DNA of 64,000 nucleotides from Spirochaetia bacterium (GCA_965203905.1 CBDBDQ010000005.1:7424001-7488000); one strand, 5' to 3'; shown: positions 35,879 through 54,441, counted from the stretch's first letter. Made by a program: numbers and translations. The notes: generated from the letters alone by a model not told the origin.

Positions 35879-37108
35879 ATGACGCCGGCGGCGGCCATCC
35901 AGACGTTCCATCTCGACTTCGACGCGTTCTACGCGTCGGTAGAGCAGCGCGACAACCCGGAGCTGCGCGGCCGTCCGGTAGTGGTGGGGGCGGCCCCCGG
36001 CGGTCGCGGCGTCGTATCCGCGTGCTCCTATGAAGCGCGCGCCTTCGGCGTACACTCGGCGATGCCGGTGTCGGAGGCGGTGCGACGCTGTCCCGATGCG
36101 GTATTCCTGCCGGTACGCATGGCGCACTATGCTGCGGTGTCGCGGCAGGTCATGCGGCTGCTGGCTACATTCAGCCCCGTCGTGAGCCCCATCTCCATCG
36201 ACGAGGCGTTCATGGAGGTCGCGGGGCTGGAACGCCTGTGGGGGCCGCCGCAGGAGCTTGCGGAGCGGATTCGCCGCGCGGTGCGCGAGCGCTGGCAACT
36301 CACGATTTCCATCGGCGGCGCCGCCACCCGCTACTTCGCCAAGCTGGCTTCGGCGCGCAGCAAACCGGACGGTGTGTTGCTCGTGCCTCCGGGCAGCGAA
36401 CGCAGCTTCCTGGCCCGGCTCGAGGTGCGTGAACTGTGGGGCATCGGTGCAACGTCCGAACGGCGGCTGGCACGCCACGGCTTGACCAGGGTCGAGCAGC
36501 TCCTGCGGCTGGACCGGGCCACGGCCGCGGCGCTGGTAGGGGAGGGGCTGAGCCGCTACCTGCTCGCCATCTGCGCCGGCGACGATCCCGGACCGTTCGC
36601 GCCCCAACGGCGCAGCCACTCGTTGAGCAGCGAGACCACGTTTCCCGCGGATACCGCCGATCGCGTGGTACTTGAGCGCACCCTGCTGCGGCTGGCCCAT
36701 CGCCTCATGGAGCGCATGTTCGCCGGTGCGTGGGAGGCCAACACCGTGGTGCTCAAGGTACGCGACCACCGCTTTCGCACCAGCACGGTGCGGCGGAGTC
36801 TGAATCGCCCGGTGGCTTCCGCCCAGGAGACCTTCGAGGTGGCACGTCAGCTTCTGCAACAGCGCTGGGATGGGCGGCGGCCGCTGCGACTGCTCGGCAT
36901 CGGTTTCGCCCACGCGGCAAGGCACGAATACACTCAGGGAGAGCTGTTCGACTCGAAGGCGCAACGAATCCGCCAGGTGGAAGAGACGGTAGCCCGGCTC
37001 CGCACGGGCAGCCGGGGCCCCTCGATCACGAAGGCGAGTCTGCTCGGCACCCGCTCGCTGCGGCCCGGTGCCGGCGACGCGCGGCCTCCGGGCGCCATGC
37101 CGGAATAG
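35879..37108 (+). CDS. dinB: DNA polymerase IV
   Basis: HLDFDAFYASVE, SACSYEARAFGVHSAMP, SIDEAF, AKLAS...KPDG, clamp motif QGELF. Confidence 0.96.
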   Translation: MTPAAAIQTFHLDFDAFYASVEQRDNPELRGRPVVVGAAPGGRGVVSACSYEARAFGVHSAMPVSEAVRRCPDAVFLPVRMAHYAAVSRQVMRLLATFSPVVSPISIDEAFMEVAGLERLWGPPQELAERIRRAVRERWQLTISIGGAATRYFAKLASARSKPDGVLLVPPGSERSFLARLEVRELWGIGATSERRLARHGLTRVEQLLRLDRATAAALVGEGLSRYLLAICAGDDPGPFAPQRRSHSLSSETTFPADTADRVVLERTLLRLAHRLMERMFAGAWEANTVVLKVRDHRFRTSTVRRSLNRPVASAQETFEVARQLLQQRWDGRRPLRLLGIGFAHAARHEYTQGELFDSKAQRIRQVEETVARLRTGSRGPSITKASLLGTRSLRPGAGDARPPGAMPE

Positions 37109-43460: not shown

Positions 43461-44759
43461 TCAGCTTCCCGCGAGCCCCTGCGCGGCGGCGTAGATCTCG
43501 GCAAACAGCGCCTCCAGGTCGTCATGCGCCACGGTGGAAAACGCCACCCGCAGGTAGTCGTCGCCCACCGAAATGGTGCCGACGCCACGCTCGCGCAACA
43601 GCTTGCGCCGCAGCGTCTCCGCCTTGCCGTCCGCCACCCGCAGGGTGAGGAAGTACCCGGAGTTGAACGGCAGCGGCTGCAGCGGACCAGCGGCGCCCGA
43701 GCGGGCGGCGAGAATCTCCCGCACGCGCCGGTAGCGCACCGCGATCGCCTCCAGGTTGGCGGCACGGTCGGCATGGTAGGTGCCGGTCTGCATCCCGCGC
43801 AGCAGCAGGCTCTGGGTCAACATGCCGGAGCTGGACACCGACGAGCGCACGGCCCCCATCAGCTTCTGCTCCAGCGCGGTGTAGTGGGAAGCACTCAGAC
43901 CGCGCGCCGCCAGCGTGAGGAACCCGAGGCGAAAGCCCCACACGTAGTTTTCCTTCGTGGCGCCGTCCACCTTGACCGCGAGCAGCCCCTCGTGGGCCTG
44001 GTTGAGACGGGCGAACAGCGACTCGTGGCAGCTCTCGGCTTCGTAGAACAGGCCGAAGTAGGCGTCGTCGCAGATCACCACCAGCAGCACCCCACGCGCG
44101 GCGGTTTCTCGCAACGCGTCCGCCAGGGCCGCCATCTCGGCGTCGTTCGGGGTGTAACCGGTCGGGTTGTTGGGGAAGTTGAGGAGCAGGACCACCTTGT
44201 CTCCGGCGGGTGTCCGCTCCAGCGCCGCGGCCACAGCGGCTACGTTGAAGCCTCCCTCCGGGGTAAAGAAGGGAACCGTCTCGAGCTGCGCCTGACGCCG
44301 TTCCTCCATCACCAGGCGGTAGTTGCCCCAAAACAGATCCGGCACCACGACGCGGTCGCCACGCTCCACCAGCAGGTCGGCGGCTATGGTGATGCCGTGG
44401 GTGAGCCCGGCGGTCACCAGGGGCAGTGAGACCGGCCCCTGCAGGCTCGGGTTCTTCTCCTGCATCTCCCGCAGCCAGGCCCGCCGCAGGTCCGGCAGGC
44501 CCGCGGTCGGGGCATAGGCAAAGATCGCCGCGGGATCGAGCTCCGGTATCAAGGCTCGGATACCGTCGAGATAGAGCGGCGTGGCACCGTCGGTGGCGAT
44601 GCCCACCGTGGCATTGAAGCGATGCGCGTGCTGCGTCGCCTCGGCAGTCTGCGCCACCACTCCGCGCGGGAAGTAGAGACGGCGTCCGAAGTCGGACAGC
44701 AGGCGCGGCACAGCGGTGGCGGCGAGCGTACGGTTGAGATCCTCGGCAATGGGGTTCAT
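43461..44759 (-). CDS. Class I/II PLP aminotransferase (aspartate aminotransferase-like)
   Basis: YAPTAG, WGNY, LNFPNNPTGY, DDAY, KVDGATKE..WGFRLG. Confidence 0.93.
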   Translation of the reverse strand: MNPIAEDLNRTLAATAVPRLLSDFGRRLYFPRGVVAQTAEATQHAHRFNATVGIATDGATPLYLDGIRALIPELDPAAIFAYAPTAGLPDLRRAWLREMQEKNPSLQGPVSLPLVTAGLTHGITIAADLLVERGDRVVVPDLFWGNYRLVMEERRQAQLETVPFFTPEGGFNVAAVAAALERTPAGDKVVLLLNFPNNPTGYTPNDAEMAALADALRETAARGVLLVVICDDAYFGLFYEAESCHESLFARLNQAHEGLLAVKVDGATKENYVWGFRLGFLTLAARGLSASHYTALEQKLMGAVRSSVSSSGMLTQSLLLRGMQTGTYHADRAANLEAIAVRYRRVREILAARSGAAGPLQPLPFNSGYFLTLRVADGKAETLRRKLLRERGVGTISVGDDYLRVAFSTVAHDDLEALFAEIYAAAQGLAGS

Positions 44760-44790
44760 TACGCTGACTGTTGGCGGAATGGCGGGACGT

Positions 44791-44828
44791 TTGTCAACGC
44801 CATCCAATCCAAGCTACATTTCGGTATT
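44791..44828 (+). promoter_or_regulatory. Promoter of the NifA-like gene overlapped by a candidate autoregulatory site
   Basis: TTGTCA-N18-TACATT; GCTAC-atttcg-GTATT at 44813-44828 covers the -10 box. Confidence 0.5.
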
Positions 44829-44830
44829 GA

Positions 44831-46387
44831 ATGTCCTCTGCCGTCTCTCCCGCCGAGGTCCGTAGCGAGGTAAGCGAGCTCAGCCTGCTGTTCGAGATCA
44901 GCCGCATCCTCGACTCCAGCCTCAACCTGCGCGACGTGGTGCACCCGGTGCTGGAGGCTCTGGGGCGACACATGGGGATCCGTCTGGGAGTGCTGACCCT
45001 GCTGAACCGGGCCACCGAGCGCATCTCCATCGAAGCCGCGTTCGGACTGTCGGAGAGCCAGCAGCGGCGCGGCCGGTACAAGATCGGCGAAGGGATTACC
45101 GGCGGCGTGGTGCAGTCCGGCGCCCCCGCCATCGTGCCCAAGATCGCGGACGAGCCGGCCATGGTGCATCGTACCGGTGCCGCCAGCAATCCGGATCTTG
45201 CCGAGCTCTCCTTCATCTGCGTGCCAATCAAGTCGGGCAATTCAGTAATCGGCTCGCTCGGCACCGACAAGCTGTTCCCGCCGGAGGCGCAGTTCGACGA
45301 GGACGTGCGCCTGCTCTCGATCATCGCCTCCATGATCTCGCAGGCGGTCAAGCTGCGGCAGGCTGCGCAGGAGGAACGGCGCCGTCTGTTGGAGGAGAAC
45401 GACCGCCTGCAGGAGGAACTGAAGGATCGGTTCCGGCCCCAGAACCTGGTCGGTAACTCGGAAGGCATGAACAGCGTGTTCCGCCTGGTGGCGCAGGTGT
45501 CCCGCAGCGACGCCACGGTGCTGGTGCGCGGCGAGACCGGCACGGGCAAGGACCTGGTGGCCCACGCGATCCACTACAACAGCGCCCGCGCCACCAAGCC
45601 GTTCATCAAGGTGAACTGCGCCGCGTTGCCGGAATCGGTGATCGAGAGCGAGCTGTTCGGGCATGAGCGCGGCGCGTTCACCGGCGCCGTGGCGACGCGC
45701 AAGGGACGTTTCGAGCTGGCCCACGGCGGGACCCTGTTTCTGGACGAGATCGGCGACCTGTCCTCGGCCACCCAGGTAAAACTGCTGCGGGTGCTCCAGG
45801 AAGGTGAGTTCGAGCGCGTCGGCGGCAACACCACCCAGCGCAGCGACGTCCGCGTCATCGCCGCCACCAACCGCAACCTCGAGGAACTGATCGAGCGGGA
45901 GGAGTTCCGGGCCGACCTCTACTACCGGCTCAACGTATTCCCGATCCACATCCCGCCGCTGCGCGAACGCAAGACCGACCTGCTGCTGCTGGCGGACCAC
46001 TTCGTCGCCAGGTACGGCCGCGAAAACCACAAGGACATCAAGCGCATCACGACCCCCGCGATCGACATGCTGATGAGCTACCACTGGCCCGGTAACGTGC
46101 GCGAACTGGAAAACTGCATCGAGCGGGCAGTGCTGCTGAGCAACGACGAGGTGATTCACGGCCACCACCTGCCGCCGACCCTGCAGACCGCGGACGCGAG
46201 CGGCACCACGCCCAGCGGCAGCCTGCAGGGCACCATCAACGCGATCGAGCGCGAGTTGATCCAGGACGCCCTCAAGTGGGCCAAGGGGAACATGGCGCGC
46301 GCCGCACGGTCGCTGCAGATCAGCGAGCGCATCATGGGCCTGCGGGTGCGCAAGTTCCGAATCGATCCCACCACCTACAAGAGCTGA
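44831..46387 (+). CDS. NifA-type sigma54 enhancer-binding protein (GAF-AAA+-HTH)
   Basis: GAF (YKIGEGITG, SFICVPIK), GETGTGKD, ESELFGHERGAFTGA, LFLDEIG, WPGNVREL, Fis-type HTH; no receiver domain. Confidence 0.95.
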   Translation: MSSAVSPAEVRSEVSELSLLFEISRILDSSLNLRDVVHPVLEALGRHMGIRLGVLTLLNRATERISIEAAFGLSESQQRRGRYKIGEGITGGVVQSGAPAIVPKIADEPAMVHRTGAASNPDLAELSFICVPIKSGNSVIGSLGTDKLFPPEAQFDEDVRLLSIIASMISQAVKLRQAAQEERRRLLEENDRLQEELKDRFRPQNLVGNSEGMNSVFRLVAQVSRSDATVLVRGETGTGKDLVAHAIHYNSARATKPFIKVNCAALPESVIESELFGHERGAFTGAVATRKGRFELAHGGTLFLDEIGDLSSATQVKLLRVLQEGEFERVGGNTTQRSDVRVIAATNRNLEELIEREEFRADLYYRLNVFPIHIPPLRERKTDLLLLADHFVARYGRENHKDIKRITTPAIDMLMSYHWPGNVRELENCIERAVLLSNDEVIHGHHLPPTLQTADASGTTPSGSLQGTINAIERELIQDALKWAKGNMARAARSLQISERIMGLRVRKFRIDPTTYKS

Positions 46388-46414
46388 CTCAGCGCGATCA
46401 CTCCGAGAGAGATC

Positions 46415-46461
46415 CCGACATGCCCGTAGGTGCTGACCCTGCCTTCCTACGCCCACGTAGG
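46415..46461. promoter_or_regulatory. Paired upstream activator sites for amtB-glnK
   Basis: CCGAC-N6-GTAGG (46415-46430) and perfect CCTAC-N6-GTAGG (46446-46461), 31 bp apart. Confidence 0.7.
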
Positions 46462-46515
46462 CTCTTCGAAGCCATCCCAGAGAGTTACTGAGGAGTCCTC
46501 GTACCTGGTTGTCCT

Positions 46516-46531
46516 TGGCACGGAACTTGCT
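46516..46531 (+). promoter_or_regulatory. sigma54 -24/-12 promoter of amtB-glnK
   Basis: TGGCAC-GGAAC-TTGCT matches the consensus TGGCAC-N5-TTGCW. Confidence 0.9.
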
Positions 46532-46576
46532 TAAGGATTGACATCACACAAATCCGTGTCAAGGAGGACTTGGAGA

Positions 46577-47923
46577 GTGCGACGTTTCCTGATAACAGCC
46601 GGAGCGCTGTTGGTGTTCGGCGCCGTCTACGGCTTCGCCGACTCGAATTCGAACGCTGTGGCAATCGACACCGTGTGGACCTTGATGGCCGCGGTGCTGG
46701 TGTTCCTGATGCAGGCGGGCTTCGCCATGCTGGAGACCGGATTCACCCGTGCCAAGAATGCCGCCAACATCATGATGAAGAACCTGATGGACTTCTCCAT
46801 CGGCACGCTGGCGTTCTGGGCGATCGGCTTCGGAATCATGTTCGGGGCGGACGCCGCGGGGCTGTTCGGCTCCAGCAAGTTCTTCCTGGCCGGGGCCGTG
46901 GTGGACGATGCGTTCTCCGACTTCACCTTCTGGGTATTCCAGGTGATGTTCGCCGCCACTGCCGCAACCATCGTCTCCGGTGCGGTGGCGGAACGCACCC
47001 AGTTCAAGGCCTACCTGGTCTACTCGGTGTTCATCAGCGGGCTGATCTATCCGGTGGTGGGGCATTGGATCTGGGGCGGCGGCTGGCTCAGCAACCTGGG
47101 GCCCAACGGCGTCATGGACTTCGCCGGCTCCACCGTGGTGCACTCGGTCGGCGGCTGGGCCGGTCTCGCTGGAGCCATGGTGCTGGGAGCCCGCGAGGGC
47201 AAGTACGTCAAGAACGGTGCCAACGGCCGGAGCGGCAAGGTCTTGGTCAACGCCATTCAGGGGCATAACATGCCGTTGGCCGCGCTCGGCGTGTTCCTGC
47301 TCTGGTTCGGATGGTTCGGCTTCAACGCCGGCAGCACCGTGGCCGGTACCGATCTGTCCATTGCGGCCATCGCCGTCACCACCAACCTGGCGGCCGCGTC
47401 GGGAGTGGTCGGCGCGCTGATCGTGGCCTGGATCATCTCCGGCAAGCCCGACCCCACCTTTGCCCTGAACGGCGCCATCGCCGGGCTGGTAGCCATCACC
47501 GCCGGCTGCGCCAACCTGTCGCCGGGCAGCGCCGTCATCGTCGGCTTCCTGGGCGGTGTGCTGGTGGTGTTGTCGGTGCAGTTCATAGACCGGGTGCTGC
47601 ACGTGGACGATCCGGTGGGCGCCATCTCCGCCCACGGCGTGGTCGGTGCCTGGGGCACCATCGCCGTCGGCCTGTTCGCGCAGGAAAAGTTCGGCGGCGT
47701 CAACGGCCTGTTCTTCGGCGGCGGTTTCGGCCAGTTGGGCGTGCAGATCGTCGGCGTGCTGGCGGTGTTCGCGTGGACCTTCGTCACTTCTCTGGTATTG
47801 TTCAAGCTGATCAAGGCCACCGTCGGCCTGCGGGTCAGCCGCAACGAGGAGCTGCGCGGGCTTGACATCGAGGAGCACGGCACCGAGGCGTACACCGATT
47901 TCGAGGTGTACACGACCCGCTAG
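46577..47923 (+). CDS. amtB: Ammonium transporter
   Basis: [54 protein letters not shown]; AAGGAGG SD before the GTG. Confidence 0.97.
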
Positions 47924-47936
47924 AGGAGAGGACTCA

Positions 47937-48278
47937 ATGAAGCTCATTATCGCCTACGTTCAGCCGCACAAGCTGAACGACGTAAAGCAGGAGTTGTTCA
48001 AGGAGGAGGTCGGCAAGATGTCGGTAACCAACGCCTTGGGCTGCGGCCAACAGATGGGTTACACCGAGACCTATCGCGGTGTCCAGATCGAGGTAAACCT
48101 GCTCAAGAAGGTGCGTATGGAGATCGCCGTCAACGACGAATTCCTGGAACGTACCATCGACGCCATCGTGCGCGGTGCCCGCACCGGTGAGATCGGCGAC
48201 GGCAAGATCTTCGTGGTCGAGCTCAATCAGTGTATCCGCATCCGCTCCGGTGAAGTGGGCAAGGTGGCTATCGGCTGA
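47937..48278 (+). CDS. glnK: PII nitrogen regulatory protein (GlnK-type)
   Basis: MKLIIAY..P.KL..VK...YRG...[12 protein letters not shown]...RIRSGE; directly after amtB. Confidence 0.96.
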
Positions 48279-48313
48279 TCCCCGCGCGGCAGGAGCCGAC
48301 TCCGTTTTTCTCG

Positions 48314-48356
48314 ACCCCGACTCGGTGGCGCCGGAGCCATCGGGTCGGGGTTTCTT
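48314..48356 (+). terminator. Rho-independent terminator between convergent glnK and glnE
   Basis: ACCCCGACTCGGTGGC...GCCATCGGGTCGGGGT stem followed by TTCTT; a small GGAG/CTCC hairpin with GTTTTT lies just upstream. Confidence 0.75.
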
Positions 48357-48366
48357 GCGCCCGTCG

Positions 48367-51300
48367 TCAGCGGCCGGCCTCGGTCACGTAGCGCAGATAG
48401 GTGGCACGTACCCGCGCGGTTACGGTCGCCAGCAGGTCATTGAACGCCGACACCGAGGCGCCGGCGCCCATCATGCGCCGCGCCAGCGCCGCCAGGGCGG
48501 CGTCGGAGCTGGGCAGTACGTGCACCTGACGGTCCTCGAACACCTGCAGAGAGTGCTCCAGGCGACGCAGAAACAGGTAGTCCTCCCGCAACTGCGCGGC
48601 GCTGCCGGCGCCGAGCACACCCGCCCGCTGCAGGCCCTCGAGCGCCGCGACGGTGCTGCCGCACACCAACTCCGGATGCTGCACCAGGTGCTGCAGTTGC
48701 AACCCCTGAACCAGGAACTCGAGGTCGCGTATGCCGCCGGCACCCGACTTGATGTCGCGGCCCTGGTTGAGTCGGCGCTGAGCCTGACCGGCAACGGCCA
48801 GATTGCGCAGGCGCTCGATGGTGGCGAAGGCGCGCGCGCCGCGCCCGTCCGGATCGCTCCCGAGCCGGGCGAACGCGGCACGCGCGCGCTGCAACAGGGC
48901 CTGACCGACCGCCCGATTGCCCGCGACCGGGCGCATGCGCAACAGCGCCTGCACCTCCCAGTCGTTGGCCGGCCCCGCGTAGTAGGCGGCCAGAGAGCTG
49001 AGTGACTGTGCCAGCTCCCCGGAGCTGCCGTAGGGACGCAGACGCCAATCGACCCGGTACGCGGCCATCTCGCCACGGTGCGCCGCCAGCGTCGTCCCCA
49101 GGGTGCGGGCCAGCTCCGTGACGCCGTGCGCCAGCTCCGTGCTCCTCGCGGGCGCGAGGCCGCGATCGTCGTACAGGGCCACCAGGTCGATGTCGGAGCT
49201 GTAGTTCAGCTCCTCCGCTCCCAGCTTGCCGTAGGCCAGAATGCACACCCGCTCGCGCAGCTCGGGCCGCTCCGCGGCCAGATCGCGTACCGCCACGTGT
49301 ATGAACGCCTCGGCGACCACGGACAGCTCCCGCATCACGTCGGTGACGGGGGCCTGCAGGCAGTAGTCCCGAATCGCGATCCGCAGGATCTCGCGCCGCC
49401 GCAGGATGCGTAGCCGCGGCCGCCAGAATCGGCGCCCGCCCAACTCCTTCACCACGTCCTGCAGCCGGCGCCGCCGGCGCAGTCGCTCCGGTTCGGTAAC
49501 CCAGTCGAACAGCTCCGGACTGCGCACCAGGGCATCCGCCAGGAATTGACTGGTGGCGAAGATCCGAATCAACAGCTCCAGACGCGTCGGCTGCCGCATC
49601 AGGGTACGGAAGTGGTGGCCCGGCTCGTCCAGTGCGGCGACGTAGCGTTCCCAGTTGTTGAGAGCGCGGTCGGGATCGGACTGGTGCGCCAGTTCGTCAC
49701 CGGCGAGCACGGCCAGACGGGCGAACTCCATGCGGTCGGGCGCGCGGGAGGCCAGGCGCACCACATTGGCCGCCGCCCGTTGCGGATGGGCGAAGCCCAG
49801 CCGGCTCAGGACGCGGGCCGCGCCGCCGGCGTCGGCACCGTCATCGGTCGGGCTCAAAACCAGGTCGGCGACGCCGGTAATGCTGCCGGAGCCCAGGGAG
49901 CCGTGGCCGAGGTGGGTGTCGATGAAGCCGCGCACGGCAGCGCGGCGGGTCTCCAACTCCAGGTGCAGCCGCTGCGCCGGAGTCAGCCCCGACGCTCCCC
50001 GGTACGCCATGCGCCGCGCCAGGTGGCCGTACTCTACCGCGCCCGGTTCCGGCAGGTAGAGGTCGAGGGCGGACCCGCGCAGGATACGCAACGCGTTGAT
50101 CAGGCGGCGGTAGAAGTCGTATGCGGCGCCCACCTGCTCCGCCTCCAGCTGCGCCAGAATCCCGGCCTGCGCCAACTCCTCGAGGGCCCGGTGTACGCTG
50201 GGAGTGCGCAACGCCGCCCGGTCCGTACCGTAGCGAACCTGCAGCATCTGCACCGCGTACTCCACGTCCACCAGGGCACCGGGACTGAACTTGGCGTTCA
50301 GGCGGCTCTCGGCGTCGTATTCTTCTACCTGGCGGCGGCGCATCCGGTGCACCTCGTCCAGCGGTATGGCACCGGTGCGGTAGACGAACTCGTCGCGCAG
50401 CCGTTCCAGGCGCGCGCCGAGCTCCCGGTCGCCCGCCACGGCGCGCAGCCGGATCAGCGCCAGCCGTTCGTAGGCCAGCGCTTCGCCGCCGGGGCCGTAG
50501 TAGCGGGCGAAACTCTCCAGGCTCACGGCACGCGGGCCGGCCGCCCCGTACGGCCGCAGGCGCAGGTCGACCTCGAAGATCCCGGCCCGCTTGGCACTGA
50601 TGCGGTTGACCGTTTCCTGCACCAGGCGCCCGTAGTACTCGCCGTTGCCGATCTGCTGCGGGCCGGTGGTGGTCCCGTGGTCGCCGTACACGAACATCAA
50701 CTCGATGTCGGAGGCGTAGCCCAGGGCGCTGCCGCCCATCTTGCCGAGTCCCACCACCGCCAGCCGGGTATCGATGCCGCCCAGGGTCCGCGGTATTCCG
50801 AACTGCGGGCGCAGCGCGTCCGCGGCCAACCCCAGCGCGGCGGCAACCACACACTCGGCCAGCCGGGTCAGGCGCGCGGCGAGCTGCGGCACACCCCCCT
50901 CGCGACTGAGCACGTGCTCCAGGTCGATCAGGAACGCCTCCCGATCCTTGAACGCGTTGAGCGCGGCCACCCGGTCGGCCGCGGTGGGCGCCGCCGCCAC
51001 CGCCTCCCGCAGCCGTTGCCCCACGGTGGCGTCGTCACTGAAGCGGTGCCGTTGCTCCGGTTCCAACATCGGCAACAGGGTTTCGAACTGCTGGCGAATG
51101 AAGTCCTCCCACAGGTAGTCGCTGGTGCCGAGGAGCAGTGCCAGCTCACCCATGATGCGGGGGTCGGCCAGCAGATCGAGGAGACGTCCCTCCTCCGGCA
51201 GCCCGAGGATCTGCTCCGTAAGCTGTTCGAAGCGCAGCAACGCCGCGGAGGGGTCGGGCGCCAGGCCCACGAAGTAGGCGAACTGCTTGGTGAGCAGCAC

Positions 51301-52254
51301 CGAGAGCTTGATCTGATTCAACAGCGTGGGATTGGCGATCGCCGCGCCCGCACGATCCACCACATCCACCACGTCCTCTACCCGTCCCGACTCGGTCGTG
51401 ATCCGTACGCGCTGGATGGACACGTCGCGCAACGCCAGCGCGGCACTGAAGCTGTACAGGAACAGCGGCGTATCCTGAGACACGATGCGCATGCGCGTGA
51501 CGGCGCCGCCGTCGGCGGCCACGACGTTGGAAACTTCGATCTGCACCGGATACAGCGCGGGCGATGTGGGCCAGTGGCGCCGGATGGTCTCCGCCACCAT
51601 TTCGCTCACCCGGCGCCGCGCCGCCTCCGGTGCGCTCCGTTCCAGGTCGCCCGCCACCTCCAGCAGGCGCTGCTCCAGCTGCTGGCGCCACGCCTCCACG
51701 CTCAGGGCACCGGCCTCGGCGGAAACGCGCCGGCCGCGGAAGCGGTCGACGATCATCCGCCGCGGTTGCGGCGCTTGCCGCAGGGTACGGCTTCGCCCGC
51801 GCCGCCGGAGGCGGTCGGCGGCCGCGCGCGAGGTGGCTCGCCGCGATGCCCGTGCGGTCGCGCCTGCCGCAGCATGAGAACCTTCATCGACGCTGCGGGA
51901 CTCGCTGCCGTAGGTGAACGCGGTCCCGGAGTCGATGGCGAATCCGCAGGCACCGAGCACGCCGGTGATGAGAGAGAACATGCCCGCGTGGTCGGCGGCG
52001 AGAATCGTGCACGACAGCGCCTCCGCATCGCCGGCGCCTGCCGCGACCGAGCCGGTCTCCGCGGCGGCGGCCGCCAGCACCACCGCCAGCGGCCGGCGGC
52101 CGTCCAGCCGGCTGATCTCGCGGATGTGCGCCACCACCTCGGGCAGGGAGAACTCAGCGTAGTACTCGTCTCCCAGCCGTGCCAGGTGCGCGTCGATGAA
52201 CGGTTCGTCGACTCCGTCGAGCTGCCTGGCGAGCACCTCACGCCGCGGCTTCAT
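48367..52254 (-). CDS. glnE: Glutamine synthetase adenylyltransferase/deadenylylase with N-terminal GlnD-like ACT domains
   Basis: Two nucleotidyltransferase domains (GKMGGSALGYASDIE...VDLRLRPYG; GKLGAEELNYSSDID...VDWRLRPYG) preceded by two ACT-like units. Confidence 0.93.
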   Translation of the reverse strand: MKPRREVLARQLDGVDEPFIDAHLARLGDEYYAEFSLPEVVAHIREISRLDGRRPLAVVLAAAAAETGSVAAGAGDAEALSCTILAADHAGMFSLITGVLGACGFAIDSGTAFTYGSESRSVDEGSHAAAGATARASRRATSRAAADRLRRRGRSRTLRQAPQPRRMIVDRFRGRRVSAEAGALSVEAWRQQLEQRLLEVAGDLERSAPEAARRRVSEMVAETIRRHWPTSPALYPVQIEVSNVVAADGGAVTRMRIVSQDTPLFLYSFSAALALRDVSIQRVRITTESGRVEDVVDVVDRAGAAIANPTLLNQIKLSVLLTKQFAYFVGLAPDPSAALLRFEQLTEQILGLPEEGRLLDLLADPRIMGELALLLGTSDYLWEDFIRQQFETLLPMLEPEQRHRFSDDATVGQRLREAVAAAPTAADRVAALNAFKDREAFLIDLEHVLSREGGVPQLAARLTRLAECVVAAALGLAADALRPQFGIPRTLGGIDTRLAVVGLGKMGGSALGYASDIELMFVYGDHGTTTGPQQIGNGEYYGRLVQETVNRISAKRAGIFEVDLRLRPYGAAGPRAVSLESFARYYGPGGEALAYERLALIRLRAVAGDRELGARLERLRDEFVYRTGAIPLDEVHRMRRRQVEEYDAESRLNAKFSPGALVDVEYAVQMLQVRYGTDRAALRTPSVHRALEELAQAGILAQLEAEQVGAAYDFYRRLINALRILRGSALDLYLPEPGAVEYGHLARRMAYRGASGLTPAQRLHLELETRRAAVRGFIDTHLGHGSLGSGSITGVADLVLSPTDDGADAGGAARVLSRLGFAHPQRAAANVVRLASRAPDRMEFARLAVLAGDELAHQSDPDRALNNWERYVAALDEPGHHFRTLMRQPTRLELLIRIFATSQFLADALVRSPELFDWVTEPERLRRRRRLQDVVKELGGRRFWRPRLRILRRREILRIAIRDYCLQAPVTDVMRELSVVAEAFIHVAVRDLAAERPELRERVCILAYGKLGAEELNYSSDIDLVALYDDRGLAPARSTELAHGVTELARTLGTTLAAHRGEMAAYRVDWRLRPYGSSGELAQSLSSLAAYYAGPANDWEVQALLRMRPVAGNRAVGQALLQRARAAFARLGSDPDGRGARAFATIERLRNLAVAGQAQRRLNQGRDIKSGAGGIRDLEFLVQGLQLQHLVQHPELVCGSTVAALEGLQRAGVLGAGSAAQLREDYLFLRRLEHSLQVFEDRQVHVLPSSDAALAALARRMMGAGASVSAFNDLLATVTARVRATYLRYVTEAGR

Positions 52255-52309
52255 CGGTACCTTCAGGGTACGCGAACCGGACCCGCGGAGTCACCTTGTC
52301 GCGAAAACG

Positions 52310-52377
52310 CCAGGAGCCATGCCGCCGCAACGACATGGCTCCTGCTGAGACGCTCTTGCCTGCTGCTTCAGCAGCAG
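52310..52377 (-). terminator. Hairpins between glnA and glnE
   Basis: CAGGAGCCATG-N12-CATGGCTCCTG (52310-52343) and CTGCTGC-TTCA-GCAGCAG (52360-52377). Confidence 0.55.
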
Positions 52378-52389
52378 CGCACCGTCACC

Positions 52390-53811
52390 TCAGATGTCGT
52401 AGTACAGGGCGAACTCCCACGGGTGCGGGCGCAGGTCGAGGGCGGTAACCTCGTTCTCCATCTTGTAGTCGATCCAGGTCTCGAGCACGTCCTCGGTGAA
52501 CACGTCCCCCTTGAGCAGGAACTCATGGTCGTCACGCAGCGCTTCCAGCGCCTCCCGTAGCGAACCGGGGGTGGTTCGGACCTTGGCCAGCTCCTCCGGC
52601 GGCAGATCGTAGAGGTCACGGTCCAGCGGCTCGCCGGGATGGATCTTGTTGGTGATGCCGTCGATCGCCGCCATCACCATGGCCGCGAACCCGAGATAGG
52701 GATTGCAGGATGGATCGGGACAGCGGAACTCGACGCGCTTCGCCTTGGGTGAGGTGGAGTACATGGGAATGCGCACGGCGGCGCTGCGGTTGCGGCGCGA
52801 GTAGGCCAGGTTGACCGGTGCCTCGAAGCCCGGCACCAGCCGCTTGAAGCTGTTGGTCGTGGGATTGGTGAAGCCGATGATCGCGGCCGCGTGGGTGAGC
52901 AGTCCGCCAATGGCGTACAGTGCCATCTCCGACAGCCCTGCGTAACCGTCGCCGGCAAACAGGTTGTTGTCACCCTTCCAGAACGACATGTGGACGTGCA
53001 TGCCGCTGCCGTTGTCCTCGAACAGCGGCTTGGGCATGAAGGTGGCGGTTTTGTTGTAGCGGCGCGCGGTGTTCTTCACCACGTACTTGTACTTGAGCAT
53101 GTTGTCGGCCATGGTCACCAGGGGCGCGAAGCGCATGTCGATCTCGCCCTGGCCGCCGGTGGCTACCTCGTGATGCTGCGCCTCGATGAGAACGCCCATG
53201 TCCTCCAGCGTCATCATCATCTCGCTGCGCAGGTCCTGCAGGCTGTCGGTCGGCGGCACCGGGAAGTAGCCTTCCTTGTAGCGCGGCTTGTAGGCCAGGT
53301 TGGGGTTCTCTTCACGCCCGGAGTTCCAGCGCCCCTCCTCCGAGTCGATGTGATAGTAGCCCTCGTGCTCGTTCTGGTCGAAGCGCACGTCGTCGAAGAT
53401 GAAGAATTCCGCCTCCGGCCCGAAAAAGGCGATGTCGGCGAGGCCGGAGGAACTGAGGTAGGCCTCGGCCTTGCGTGCGATGTTGCGCGGGTCACGGGTG
53501 TAGTCCTCTCCGGTCATCGGATCCGAGATGTTGCAGATCATGACCAGCGTCTTGCGGGCCAGGAACGGGTCGATGAAGCCGGTCTCCGGAATCGGCTTGA
53601 CCAGCATGTCGGACTCATTGATCGACTGCCAGCCGCGGATGCTGGAACCGTCGAAGCCGAGGCCGCCCTCGAAATCGTCCTCCGACAGCTCGCGGGCGGG
53701 AATCGAGAAATGCTGCCACAGACCGGGGAAGTCCATGAAGCGCAGGTCGATGACCTCGATCGTTTCCTCGGCGATCAGCTTCATCACATCACCAGGTGTC
53801 TTGAGATTCAC
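52390..53811 (-). CDS. glnA: Glutamine synthetase type I (adenylylatable)
   Basis: [43 protein letters not shown], adenylylation loop DLYDLPPEE. Confidence 0.98.
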
Positions 53812-53861
53812 TGTTTCCTCCTCATGAATCGCGCGCTAGCGCACTACGTCACCCAAGTATT

Positions 53862-53877
53862 AGCAAGATCCATACCA
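53862..53877 (-). promoter_or_regulatory. sigma54 -24/-12 promoter of glnA-glnE
   Basis: Minus strand TGGTAT-GGATC-TTGCT, with correct GG-N10-GC spacing. Confidence 0.85.
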
Positions 53878-53919
53878 TGGCTCGAAACCACTCGATACTG
53901 CCTGCATCGCACGCGGAGA

Positions 53920-53967
53920 GCTACATGTATGTAGGGCACCGCGCCAGGATTCCTACCAAATGGTTCG
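53920..53967. promoter_or_regulatory. Paired upstream activator sites for glnA
   Basis: GCTAC-N6-GTAGG (53920-53935) and CCTAC-N6-GTTCG (53952-53967), 32 bp apart. Confidence 0.7.
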
Positions 53968-54015
53968 ATTCTCGATTCGTTGATCGCCGAGCCAGGGGCG
54001 TGCTATACAACCGAC

Positions 54016-54441
54016 GTGGCAAGTCTATCGAGAACCCTGGCCCTGATCAAACCCGACGCCTTCGACCGCCGCCTAACCGGCAAGCTCATCGACGCCGCCC
54101 TGGAAGCCGGCCTCGCCATCGTGTCCGTAAAGAGCGTCAAACTCAACCGCGCCCAGGCCGAGGCGTTCTACGCGGTGCATCGCGAGCGGCCCTTCTTCTC
54201 GTCGCTGGTCGAATTCATGACCTCGGGCACCACGGTGGCCATGGTCCTGGAGGGAGCGGACGCGGTTGCCCTCTGGCGCCGGGCCATGGGCGCCACCGAC
54301 CCCGCCGACGCGGCGGAGGGCACCATCCGCCGCCGCTTCGCGGAGTCGATAGAACGCAACTGCTGCCACGGCTCAGACTCCGACGCCAACGCCGCCATCG
54401 AAATAGGCTGCTTCTTCAGCGGCGAGGAACTGCTCAGATAG
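54016..54441 (+). CDS. ndk: Nucleoside diphosphate kinase
   Basis: RTLALIKPDA, FYAVH.ERPFF, GATDP..A..GTIR, N..HGSDS. Confidence 0.97.
   Translation: MASLSRTLALIKPDAFDRRLTGKLIDAALEAGLAIVSVKSVKLNRAQAEAFYAVHRERPFFSSLVEFMTSGTTVAMVLEGADAVALWRRAMGATDPADAAEGTIRRRFAESIERNCCHGSDSDANAAIEIGCFFSGEELLR

Follow-up and report, generated by a model that had tools for sequence, protein, structure and literature searches.

A glnA-linked GlnE with GlnD-type ACT domains and a NifA-like GAF activator as the putative core of a GlnD-independent nitrogen-control circuit in a spirochaete

The cascade of GlnD, PII, NtrBC and GlnE is largely a proteobacterial solution to nitrogen control. The E. coli GlnE, which adenylylates glutamine synthetase (GS), takes PII and uridylylated PII (PII-UMP) plus glutamine as its signals and also responds directly to glutamine; actinobacterial GlnE acts without PII. 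Here we describe a locus (positions 44791-53967) in a 64,000-nucleotide stretch of a Spirochaetia genome (G000:C5:7424001-7488000), called the window below, in which a sigma-54 activator, amtB, a PII gene, glnA and an unusual glnE lie together. The genome belongs to the Spirochaetota, has 8.0 Mb in 5 contigs and is 98.7% complete with 7.9% contamination; the GC content of the main contig is 66%. Sampled genomes and loci are numbered G and L, G000 being the genome of the window.

Several described systems resemble parts of this locus. In GlnD, the ACT part is required for the response to glutamine (Zhang 2010, cited in PMC11190351). The Chlamydomonas alpha-amylase AMA2 has an N-terminal GlnD-like ACT domain and is directly activated by glutamine; among the ACT fusion partners listed in the accessible part of the same article, GlnE is absent (PMC11190351). 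AMA2 is thus an enzyme fused to a GlnD-like ACT domain, as is the GlnE of the window, but it is a eukaryotic starch enzyme and has a single ACT domain. In Leptospira, the activator EbpA, which has two GAF domains, activates amtB together with RpoN and is needed under nitrogen limitation (PMC12655853). The GAF domains of NifA proteins interact with PII or 2-oxoglutarate (in part PMC3854208).

A first-pass annotation of the window had described a compact nitrogen-assimilation module with a receiver-less activator, amtB-glnK and glnA-glnE at one locus, and these are all present by Pfam and NCBIfam. We consider it somewhat more probable than its opposite, at roughly 0.55, that the locus is the core of a GlnD-independent nitrogen-control circuit in a free-living spirochaete, in which a GAF activator drives a regulon and an ACT-bearing GlnE senses glutamine. 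Such a circuit is Ntr-like in its working and made of different parts. This reading builds on the absence of the classical components, on the architecture of GlnE, on the conserved regulatory sites and on the genes that the predicted regulon contains.

The GlnE protein starts with a GlnD-type ACT pair, followed by an adenylylating-type (AT) and then a deadenylylating-type (AR) domain, and so does not have the canonical order of AR before AT. Aligned with the C-termini of GlnD from E. coli and four spirochaetes, the ACT module scored 99.4% probability and E 1.6e-21 over 236 columns, which cover the helical lead and both ACT domains (hhalign). The NCBIfam matches of residues 1-340 are to GlnD models only; by Pfam alone the module is barely detected (PF01842, E 0.095). 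An AlphaFold2 model built from 26 sequences shows two ACT folds (predicted local distance difference test 85.1, predicted template-modelling score 0.83). Thus the earlier claim that this GlnE bears GlnD-type ACT domains holds. In contrast to GlnD, the module sits on GlnE-type catalytic domains, in an N-terminal or internal rather than C-terminal position, and ACT1 carries a long, disordered basic insert (residues 115-166). No other part of GlnD is present: TIGR01693 (GlnD) matches the ACT region only (40.8 bits over the entire protein; cut-off 519.4), and neither the nucleotidyltransferase nor the HD domain of GlnD was found in GlnE (HD by Pfam).

Both catalytic halves contain PF03710 and PF08335, i.e. 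two nucleotidyltransferase domains, each with a GlnD_UR_UTase helical domain, as in E. coli GlnE. All three GlnE equivalog profiles align residues 341-870 with their C-terminal (AT) half, and the E. coli AT domain structure (PDB 3k7d) matches residues 340-722. The same three profiles align residues 871-1295 with their N-terminal (AR) half, in agreement with the match to PDB 1v4a, and this domain scores 134.8 bits with the AR half of E. coli GlnE against 89.4 with the AT half. In our view the short motifs settle the assignment. The domain next to the ACT pair reads GK.GG..LGYASD.E. (E. coli AT, GKLGGWELGYSSDLDL) and the other one GKLG..ELNYSSDIDL (E. coli AR, GKLGGGELNFSSDIDL), so that both correspond to the recognisable E. 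coli motifs ELGYSSDLDL and ELNFSSDIDL. Of the metal-binding motif G-x-G...D-x-D, the AR-type domain has SDIDL; the AT-type domain has SDIEL and hence D-x-E, a change that may be tolerated if Glu can take the role of Asp. A further likeness to E. coli GlnE is the link to a type I GS with an adenylylation tyrosine; the differences are the order of AT before AR, the 340-residue ACT module in front and the D-x-E motif. The protein stays below all three GlnE equivalog cut-offs (484.9 vs 625, 423.2 vs 487 and 350.2 vs 724).

This architecture is not confined to the window. The ACT module was matched in 33 of 401 sampled genomes of the phylum and in 22 of 153 genera, G000 counted. When the 32 other loci were classified, 14 had the order ACT pair, AT, AR (type A, 1243-1303 residues) and 15 the order AR, ACT pair, AT (type B, 1166-1317 residues, one 1602), to which comes G119, where a type-B protein is split into two open reading frames (ORFs); in G068 and G057 glnE is cut by contig ends and stays outside both types. 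In 4 of the 15 type-B proteins (G186, G067, G033, G045) the ACT part was seen by HMMER-scored search only and not by blastp at a threshold of at least 45 bits. Common to both architectures is the position of the ACT pair directly before the AT-type domain, the latter with D-x-E for D-x-D, which was found in 26 of 27 long ORFs read by motif, the split G119 included; the exception, G051, has an AT motif outside the pattern. Of the type-B proteins, G032 and G216 were mapped to the profiles: the N-terminal domain falls on the AR half in both, and the C-terminal domain of G032 on the AT half. In a midpoint-rooted tree of the ACT module, which comprises 26 alignment rows and leaves out some type-B genomes, 18 type-A rows are parted from 8 type-B rows by one branch with support 100/99.

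Outside this sample the module is more widespread. Its profile matched, among 1.84 billion representatives, 301 clusters at E <= 1e-30, 1810 at E <= 1e-10 and 4910 at E <= 1e-3. The best 150 clusters comprise by motif 42 of type A, 8 of type B, 39 with the ACT part only and 23 left without a class, several of them resembling type B; a further 38, of 488-1164 residues, have the ACT pair and the AT motif without an AR motif, fragments and true short forms being indistinguishable here. All AT motifs matched among the 150 end in E. In the ESM Atlas (homologue P0048), which we use for leads only, long GlnE clusters come most commonly from Chloroflexota, Thermodesulfobacteriota and Planctomycetota, and forms of 729-795 residues occur in Nitrospirota and Chloroflexota. 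A tentative extension, to which we give slightly less than an even chance, is that the ACT pair and the AT-type domain, a mosaic of the GlnD sensor and the GlnE catalytic domain, form a glutamine-gated GS adenylyltransferase that is self-contained and needs neither PII nor GlnD. It would be present in several phyla, with the AR domain on either side or possibly absent. Together with the GAF activator this unit would make a complete circuit that needs no modification cascade and, in some genomes, no PII. Our literature search, which left subscription journals outside, found no description of an ACT-fused or permuted GlnE; domain databases may list the architecture. What is new here is the permuted ACT-GlnE architecture and the predicted regulon, control of amtB by a GAF activator having already been published for Leptospira.

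The PII protein of the window (PF00543, 82.6 bits) is encoded by the sole PII gene of the genome, 14 bases past amtB. An ungapped alignment with E. coli GlnK shows that the T-loop keeps Tyr46-Arg47-Gly48 and that Ile51 replaces Tyr51. The lack of Tyr51, noticed already in the first-pass annotation, makes uridylylation at position 51 impossible. The enzyme for it is also missing from the genome, where TIGR01693 matches only the ACT region of GlnE (21.9 bits) and an HD-type fragment (19.6 bits) against a cut-off of 519. Likewise, GlnD was found in none of the close relatives G401-G403 and, as a full-length protein (E <= 1e-70), in none of the 14 type-A genomes. A census of residue 51 in 60 of the 90 listed PII matches fits this pattern: Tyr51 is kept in 23 of 24 PII proteins from GlnD-positive genomes, the exception being NifI-like, vs 5 of 36 from GlnD-less genomes. 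In the PII clade of the window, position 51 is T, T, I, M, I, I, V, M, L and I in ten type-A genomes and Y in two. PII itself was found in 31 of 35 genomes tested; no PII at E <= 1e-8 was detected in the type-B genomes G032 (98% complete), G119 (95%), G088 (75%) and G097 (84%).

Whether the ACT pair is a glutamine sensor has to be weighed against other ligands. ACT pairs bind many of them, and the best structural matches of the model are to proteins that sense Thr/Lys, Arg or Ile: VIA-align placed the regulatory ACT domains of Synechocystis aspartate kinase first (3l76_B, Z 11.6, root-mean-square deviation 4.0, 163 aligned), followed by the regulatory domains of CASTOR and threonine deaminase (both Z 7.9, in a range that the tool calls common). 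Foldseek found no match to the ACT model in the PDB at E <= 0.001; its best rows were the large glutamate dehydrogenase of M. smegmatis and ACT-like domains (E 3e-3 to 7e-2). The pair could therefore respond to another metabolite or amino acid, or serve dimerisation or docking to GS or PII, GlnE being run by unmodified GlnK and 2-oxoglutarate or not regulated at all. This would also suit the 8 of 16 type-B genomes (G132, G139, G186, G206, G216, G281, G289, G077) in which ACT-GlnE stands beside full-length GlnD and a Tyr51-PII. Such coexistence means that the ACT fusion is more than a simple replacement of GlnD and that loss of GlnD is not needed for it. Nevertheless, we regard a non-glutamine ACT pair as unlikely, because the module is GlnD-like over its whole length with NCBIfam matches to GlnD models only, because ACT-GlnE occurs in the four genomes without a found PII gene, and because the module is fixed directly before the AT-type domain in both architectures.

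The substrate of the glutamine-sensing GlnE favoured here would be the GS encoded next to it. This glnA product (TIGR00653, 655 bits; 55% identity to E. coli GlnA) keeps the tyrosine of the adenylylation loop (DLYDLPPEE vs NLYDLPPEE in E. coli). The genome encodes a second, canonical AR-AT GlnE at about C5:6170668-6174231 (L148:4669-8232), far from any GS gene, which also occurs in two of three close relatives (G401 and G402, not G403) and may be a lineage-specific acquisition. It could carry part or all of GS regulation. If it were the physiological GS adenylyltransferase, ACT-GlnE would have diverged towards another substrate or retained one activity only, and this would fit the scores, since the canonical protein passes NF010706 over its full length (819 bits vs cut-off 724, profile positions 19-981 of 986) and ACT-GlnE passes none of the GlnE cut-offs and has the D-x-E motif. 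We give this explanation little weight. The gene for ACT-GlnE immediately follows glnA in the window and in many of the sampled genomes, and a search of the genome found a single type I GS gene. Moreover, ACT-GlnE is the sole GlnE in 14/14 type-A and 16/16 type-B genomes as well as in the relative G403, and any modification of GS in those genomes must be its work. Apart from this, a type III-like GS is encoded at L149:2284-5254 (G000:C5:5290283-5293253; TIGR03105, 531 bits vs cut-off 469.6), where its gene follows that of a GltB-domain protein.

By Pfam, the activator consists of a GAF domain (residues ~31-173), an AAA+ domain (206-373) with the GAFTGA motif, a lid and a Fis-type helix-turn-helix (HTH) domain (471-509); the receiver domain with which NtrC begins was not found. 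It exceeds the cut-off of the NifA model TIGR01817 (540 vs 528.85 bits) but reaches only 355 bits on the NtrC model TIGR01818 (cut-off 558.6), there with the AAA+ part only. The GAF-AAA+-HTH architecture is that of NifA. The GAF domain of A. vinelandii NifA binds 2-oxoglutarate. NifA binding sites in general read TGT-N10-ACA. The activator of the window differs from NifA in its predicted site, CCTAC-N6-GTAGG, and in its predicted targets, which are assimilation genes in a genome without nifH (best TIGR01287 match 29.6 bits vs cut-off 394). With Leptospira EbpA it shares the phylum, the receiver-less GAF, AAA+ and HTH composition, sigma-54 and amtB; having a single GAF domain and 518 residues, it falls outside the EbpA type with two GAF domains and about 700 residues. 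The EbpA-like family f20 is different as well: it has only forms of ~710 residues, 30% identical to the GAF domain of the window, and GlnD in 74 of 75 genomes; the two of its genomes that were tested, G049 and G363, have a Tyr51-PII and no GlnE.

The activator gene clusters with amtB-glnK in the genome itself, in four close relatives (L007-L010) and in eight sampled genomes (G030, G094, G208, G332, G380, G210, G295, G273). GAF-domain homologues were found in 236 of 401 genomes, and single-GAF activators of ~520 residues in many families. For a complex of the GAF domain with GlnK the predicted score was 0.00, from alignments of 7 rows for GAF and 17 rows for GlnK, a value that speaks neither for nor against binding. 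Pairs of NifI1/NifI2-like PII proteins are present in G030 (L089, L090), G051 (L101, L102), G241, G077 and G206; in the last three an activator homologue is encoded within 2-5 kb, an arrangement that points to true NifA genes in diazotrophic spirochaetes. In family f40 (L063, L067, L068, L069, L074, L075), a sigma-54 activator of ~697 residues with a longer N-terminus, 36-38% identical to that of the window, is divergent from glnA and beside type-B glnE; the glnA genes of L068 and L069 have a separate sigma-54 promoter, in AT-rich surroundings that lack the CCTAC palindrome.

Both operons of the locus have a sigma-54 promoter, TGGCACGGAACTTGCT before amtB (TGGCAC-N5-TTGCT, conserved in 5/5 aligned genomes) and TGGTATGGATCTTGCT before glnA (TGGTAT-N5-TTGCT, conserved in 4/4). 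These are the only two matches to TGGYAY-N5-TTGCW in the 64 kb, where 0.09 are expected; none of 100 shuffles reached two. Upstream of them, CTAC-N6-GTAG matches at 46447-46460 and 53921-53934. The window contains three such matches vs 0.19 expected, a number reached in 0/100 shuffles; the third, at 35929, was set aside as chance because it lies inside a coding region. In front of each operon the palindrome is doubled. The amtB sites are CCGAC-N6-GTAGG (46415-46430) and CCTAC-N6-GTAGG (46446-46461), with centres 31 bp apart and conserved in 5/5 aligned genomes; the glnA sites are CGAAC-N6-GTAGG (53952-53967) and CCTAC-N6-GTAGC (53920-53935), with centres 32 bp apart and conserved in 4/4 aligned regions. 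In each pair the weaker palindrome comes first and the stronger one second. The aligned double site reads C(C/T)GAC-N6-GTAGG, 15-16 bases, CCTAC-N6-GTAG(G/C), and it is, together with the promoter, the only conserved block in the upstream alignments. In G030 and G094, where the activator beside amtB-glnK is 62-65% identical, two sites 30 bp apart also precede the sigma-54 promoter of amtB. The sigma-54 promoters and the shared paired palindrome of the first-pass annotation were thus confirmed by enrichment and conservation.

A scan of the whole genome gave 117 promoter-like matches. Five of them have a strict palindrome (7 of 8 positions) at most 260 bp upstream, where ~1.4 are expected from 0.046 strict sites per kb. 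The loose palindrome pattern showed no enrichment near sigma-54-like promoters (11 promoters vs ~10 expected); the strict pattern alone was used. Four of the five predicted targets are nitrogen assimilation genes: amtB, glnA, a urea-type ATP-binding cassette (ABC) transporter (PF13433 binding protein, two permeases, ATPase) and an operon for a major facilitator superfamily (MFS) transporter, a NIR_SIR nitrite reductase and a flavodoxin-type reductase, which has two sites 30 bp apart. The fifth is a secreted acidic protein of 460 residues without Pfam family, encoded upstream of trpE. The most likely driver of this Ntr-like regulon is the NifA-like GAF activator encoded at the locus. As to the fifth target, the very acidic protein (L079:1067-2449, G000:C5:2078866-2080248) begins ~600 bases downstream of its sigma-54 promoter with a perfect CCTAC-N6-GTAGG, behind a long leader; possibly it is a nitrogen-regulated outer-membrane or surface protein.

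Instead of the GAF protein, a receiver-type activator of a two-component system might drive the nitrogen promoters, the GAF protein being a NifA relic or a narrow local regulator. The genome has one rpoN and seven sigma-54 activator genes, none of which passes the NtrC cut-off (best 453.7 vs 558.6 bits), and the best NtrB match is 104.8 vs 240 bits. Receiver-AAA+-HTH activators are present, one of them behind a soluble PAS kinase of NtrB size (401 residues, L082:4287-5492) that aligns to NtrB positions 7-347 of 349, and it is this activator that is most NtrC-like. Yet the kinase fits AtoS (264.7 bits) better than NtrB, and its partner AtoC (522 bits) better than NtrC (454 bits). The pair lies behind holB and is surrounded by murG, cvpA and wecA-like genes, i.e. 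among cell-envelope genes. All six other activators have AtoC-type best models, with AtoS or ZraS as best models of the neighbouring kinases, and they have no nitrogen genes as neighbours. The GAF activator, on the other hand, is a neighbour of amtB-glnK in several families, and the arrangement of the palindromes is preserved there. Control by a two-component activator thus appears improbable to us. At L082:2731-6847 (G000:C5:4156730-4160846), holB, the PAS kinase and the activator are joined by overlapping stop and start codons; a kinase of this type is the best NtrB-like match in many sampled spirochaetes, and the pair may correspond to the Rrp2-type pair of Borrelia. Another sigma-54 activator (L087:5087-6275, G000:C5:2064086-2065274) is split between two overlapping reading frames, one with the receiver and the other with the AAA+ part, and the ORF read shows no HTH; it may be a frameshift or pseudogene.

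Under the favoured reading of a GlnD-independent circuit, the GAF activator would bind the paired 16-bp inverted repeats (centres 30-32 bp apart, ~55-150 bp upstream of the promoters), as sites and synteny suggest, and switch on amtB-glnK, glnA and the three other predicted targets. Its GAF domain would read nitrogen status, likely by binding 2-oxoglutarate or unmodified GlnK. The gene for GlnE could be expressed by read-through from glnA or from its own promoter. GS would be modified at its adenylylation tyrosine by the rearranged GlnE, judging from homology and architecture. The ACT pair in front of the AT-type domain would bind glutamine and gate this domain, thereby shifting GlnE towards adenylylation, so that the sensing step performed in enterobacteria by GlnD and PII-UMP would have moved into GlnE itself. 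Ile51-GlnK presumably gates AmtB by direct sensing of 2-oxoglutarate, ATP and ADP, as in other GlnD-less organisms.

A number of observations speak against this reading, among them the canonical GlnE, the type-B genomes with GlnD and Tyr51-PII, and the NtrBC-sized kinase-activator pair described above. Glutamine as the ACT ligand is proposed by analogy only. The first catalytic domain is nearly tied between the halves of E. coli GlnE (121.3 against 117.4 bits), and in the type-B protein of G216 the ACT-adjacent domain has its best stretch on the AR half in 3/3 models; its motifs are nonetheless consistent. The assignment of the palindromes to the activator rests on adjacency, with six other sigma-54 activators in the genome, and in none of the other type-A loci (L047-L054, L057-L060) did the promoter pattern match in front of amtB or glnA. 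Finally, homologues of the activator also occur in GlnD-positive genomes and near NifI-like PII pairs. The first-pass proposal of a module working without NtrBC or PII uridylylation therefore stands in part. The genome search revealed no GlnD, NtrB, NtrC or NifH above the cut-offs, no NtrB equivalog exceeded its cut-off in 38 further genomes (best 141 bits), and PII has Ile51; the presence of a canonical GlnE and of type B beside GlnD stands against it. The expected co-occurrence of the components has a similar outcome: it is borne out by the lack of GlnD in type A, the lack of Tyr51 in most PII genes from genomes without GlnD and the synteny in 4/4 relatives, and not by the GlnD in half of the type-B genomes or by the activator in GlnD-positive ones.

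The features of the locus are listed in Table 1. The order ndk / glnA-glnE / glnK-amtB-activator / aminotransferase is kept in 4/4 close relatives (L007-L010); in L009 the contig ends inside glnE, so that glnA and ndk are out of view, and in L010 a 3.3-kb insert separates glnA from glnE. The start codons of the divergent activator and aminotransferase genes are only 23 bases apart, an arrangement likewise kept in all four, and hence the aminotransferase gene may belong to the module. AmtB is well supported (PF00909, E 5.9e-129; TIGR00836, 459.7 bits), and its start is probably GTG 46577, judging from the promoter position and the ribosome-binding site AAGGAGGA. Three further amtB paralogues of the genome have no linked PII gene.

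Table 1. Features in and around the nitrogen-control locus; positions are those of the window.
Feature	Position	Strand	Basis or remark
aminotransferase, PRK08637-family	43461-44807	-	divergent from activator gene
sigma-54 activator, GAF + AAA+ + HTH, 518 residues	44831-46387	+	Pfam, NCBIfam
amtB upstream double site	46415-46461	+	sequence, conservation, enrichment
sigma-54 promoter of amtB-glnK	46516-46531	+	pattern match, conservation
amtB	ORF 46538-47923, likely start 46577	+	PF00909, TIGR00836
glnK-type PII, 113 residues	47937-48278	+	PF00543
glnE, 1295 residues	48367-52254	-	domain and profile matches
GlnE residues 871-1295 and stop, AR-type	48367-49644	-	motif GKLGAEELNYSSDIDL
GlnE residues 341-870, AT-type nucleotidyltransferase	49645-51234	-	motif GKMGGSALGYASDIEL
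GlnE residues 1-340, sensor module	51235-52254	-	helical lead, ACT1 ~79-176, ACT2 ~238-329
glnA-glnE spacer with terminator-like hairpin	52255-52389	-	sequence
glnA, type I GS	52390-53811	-	TIGR00653
sigma-54 promoter of glnA	53862-53877	-	pattern match, conservation
glnA upstream double site	53920-53967	-	sequence, conservation, enrichment
ndk	53980-54441	+	part of the conserved layout

Between glnA and glnE lies a terminator-like hairpin, CAGGAGCCATG, 12 bases and CATGGCTCCTG, then GCGTTTTC, and thus a single glnA-glnE transcript is a candidate only. A scan for consensus terminators in 44500-54200 gave nothing above shuffles and did not list this hairpin. The spacer contains two hairpins in all, the second being the one followed by the GCGTTTTC stretch. 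They could act as an attenuating terminator before glnE or, by analogy with GlnZ, which is annotated behind glnA in E. coli, be the source of a small RNA from the 3' untranslated region. Three metatranscriptome runs, in which 5-13% of the sampled words were present, gave short contigs over parts of the activator gene, amtB, glnE and glnA. They are 95-99% alike and hence derived from relatives; they reveal neither transcript ends nor operon structure, and carry-over of DNA is possible.

Little is understood of the control of GS adenylylation in organisms without GlnD, and a GlnE fused to its own sensor is a concrete answer, testable in spirochaetes with complete single-contig genomes. The two permuted architectures are a clean example of how domains can be rearranged around a unit of sensor and catalyst that is itself conserved. 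Our literature search on NifA, amtB, glnK and sigma-54 in spirochaetes returned, among the matches listed, no work on Spirochaeta. The binding site and the predicted regulon would provide a first map of nitrogen control for non-leptospiral spirochaetes.

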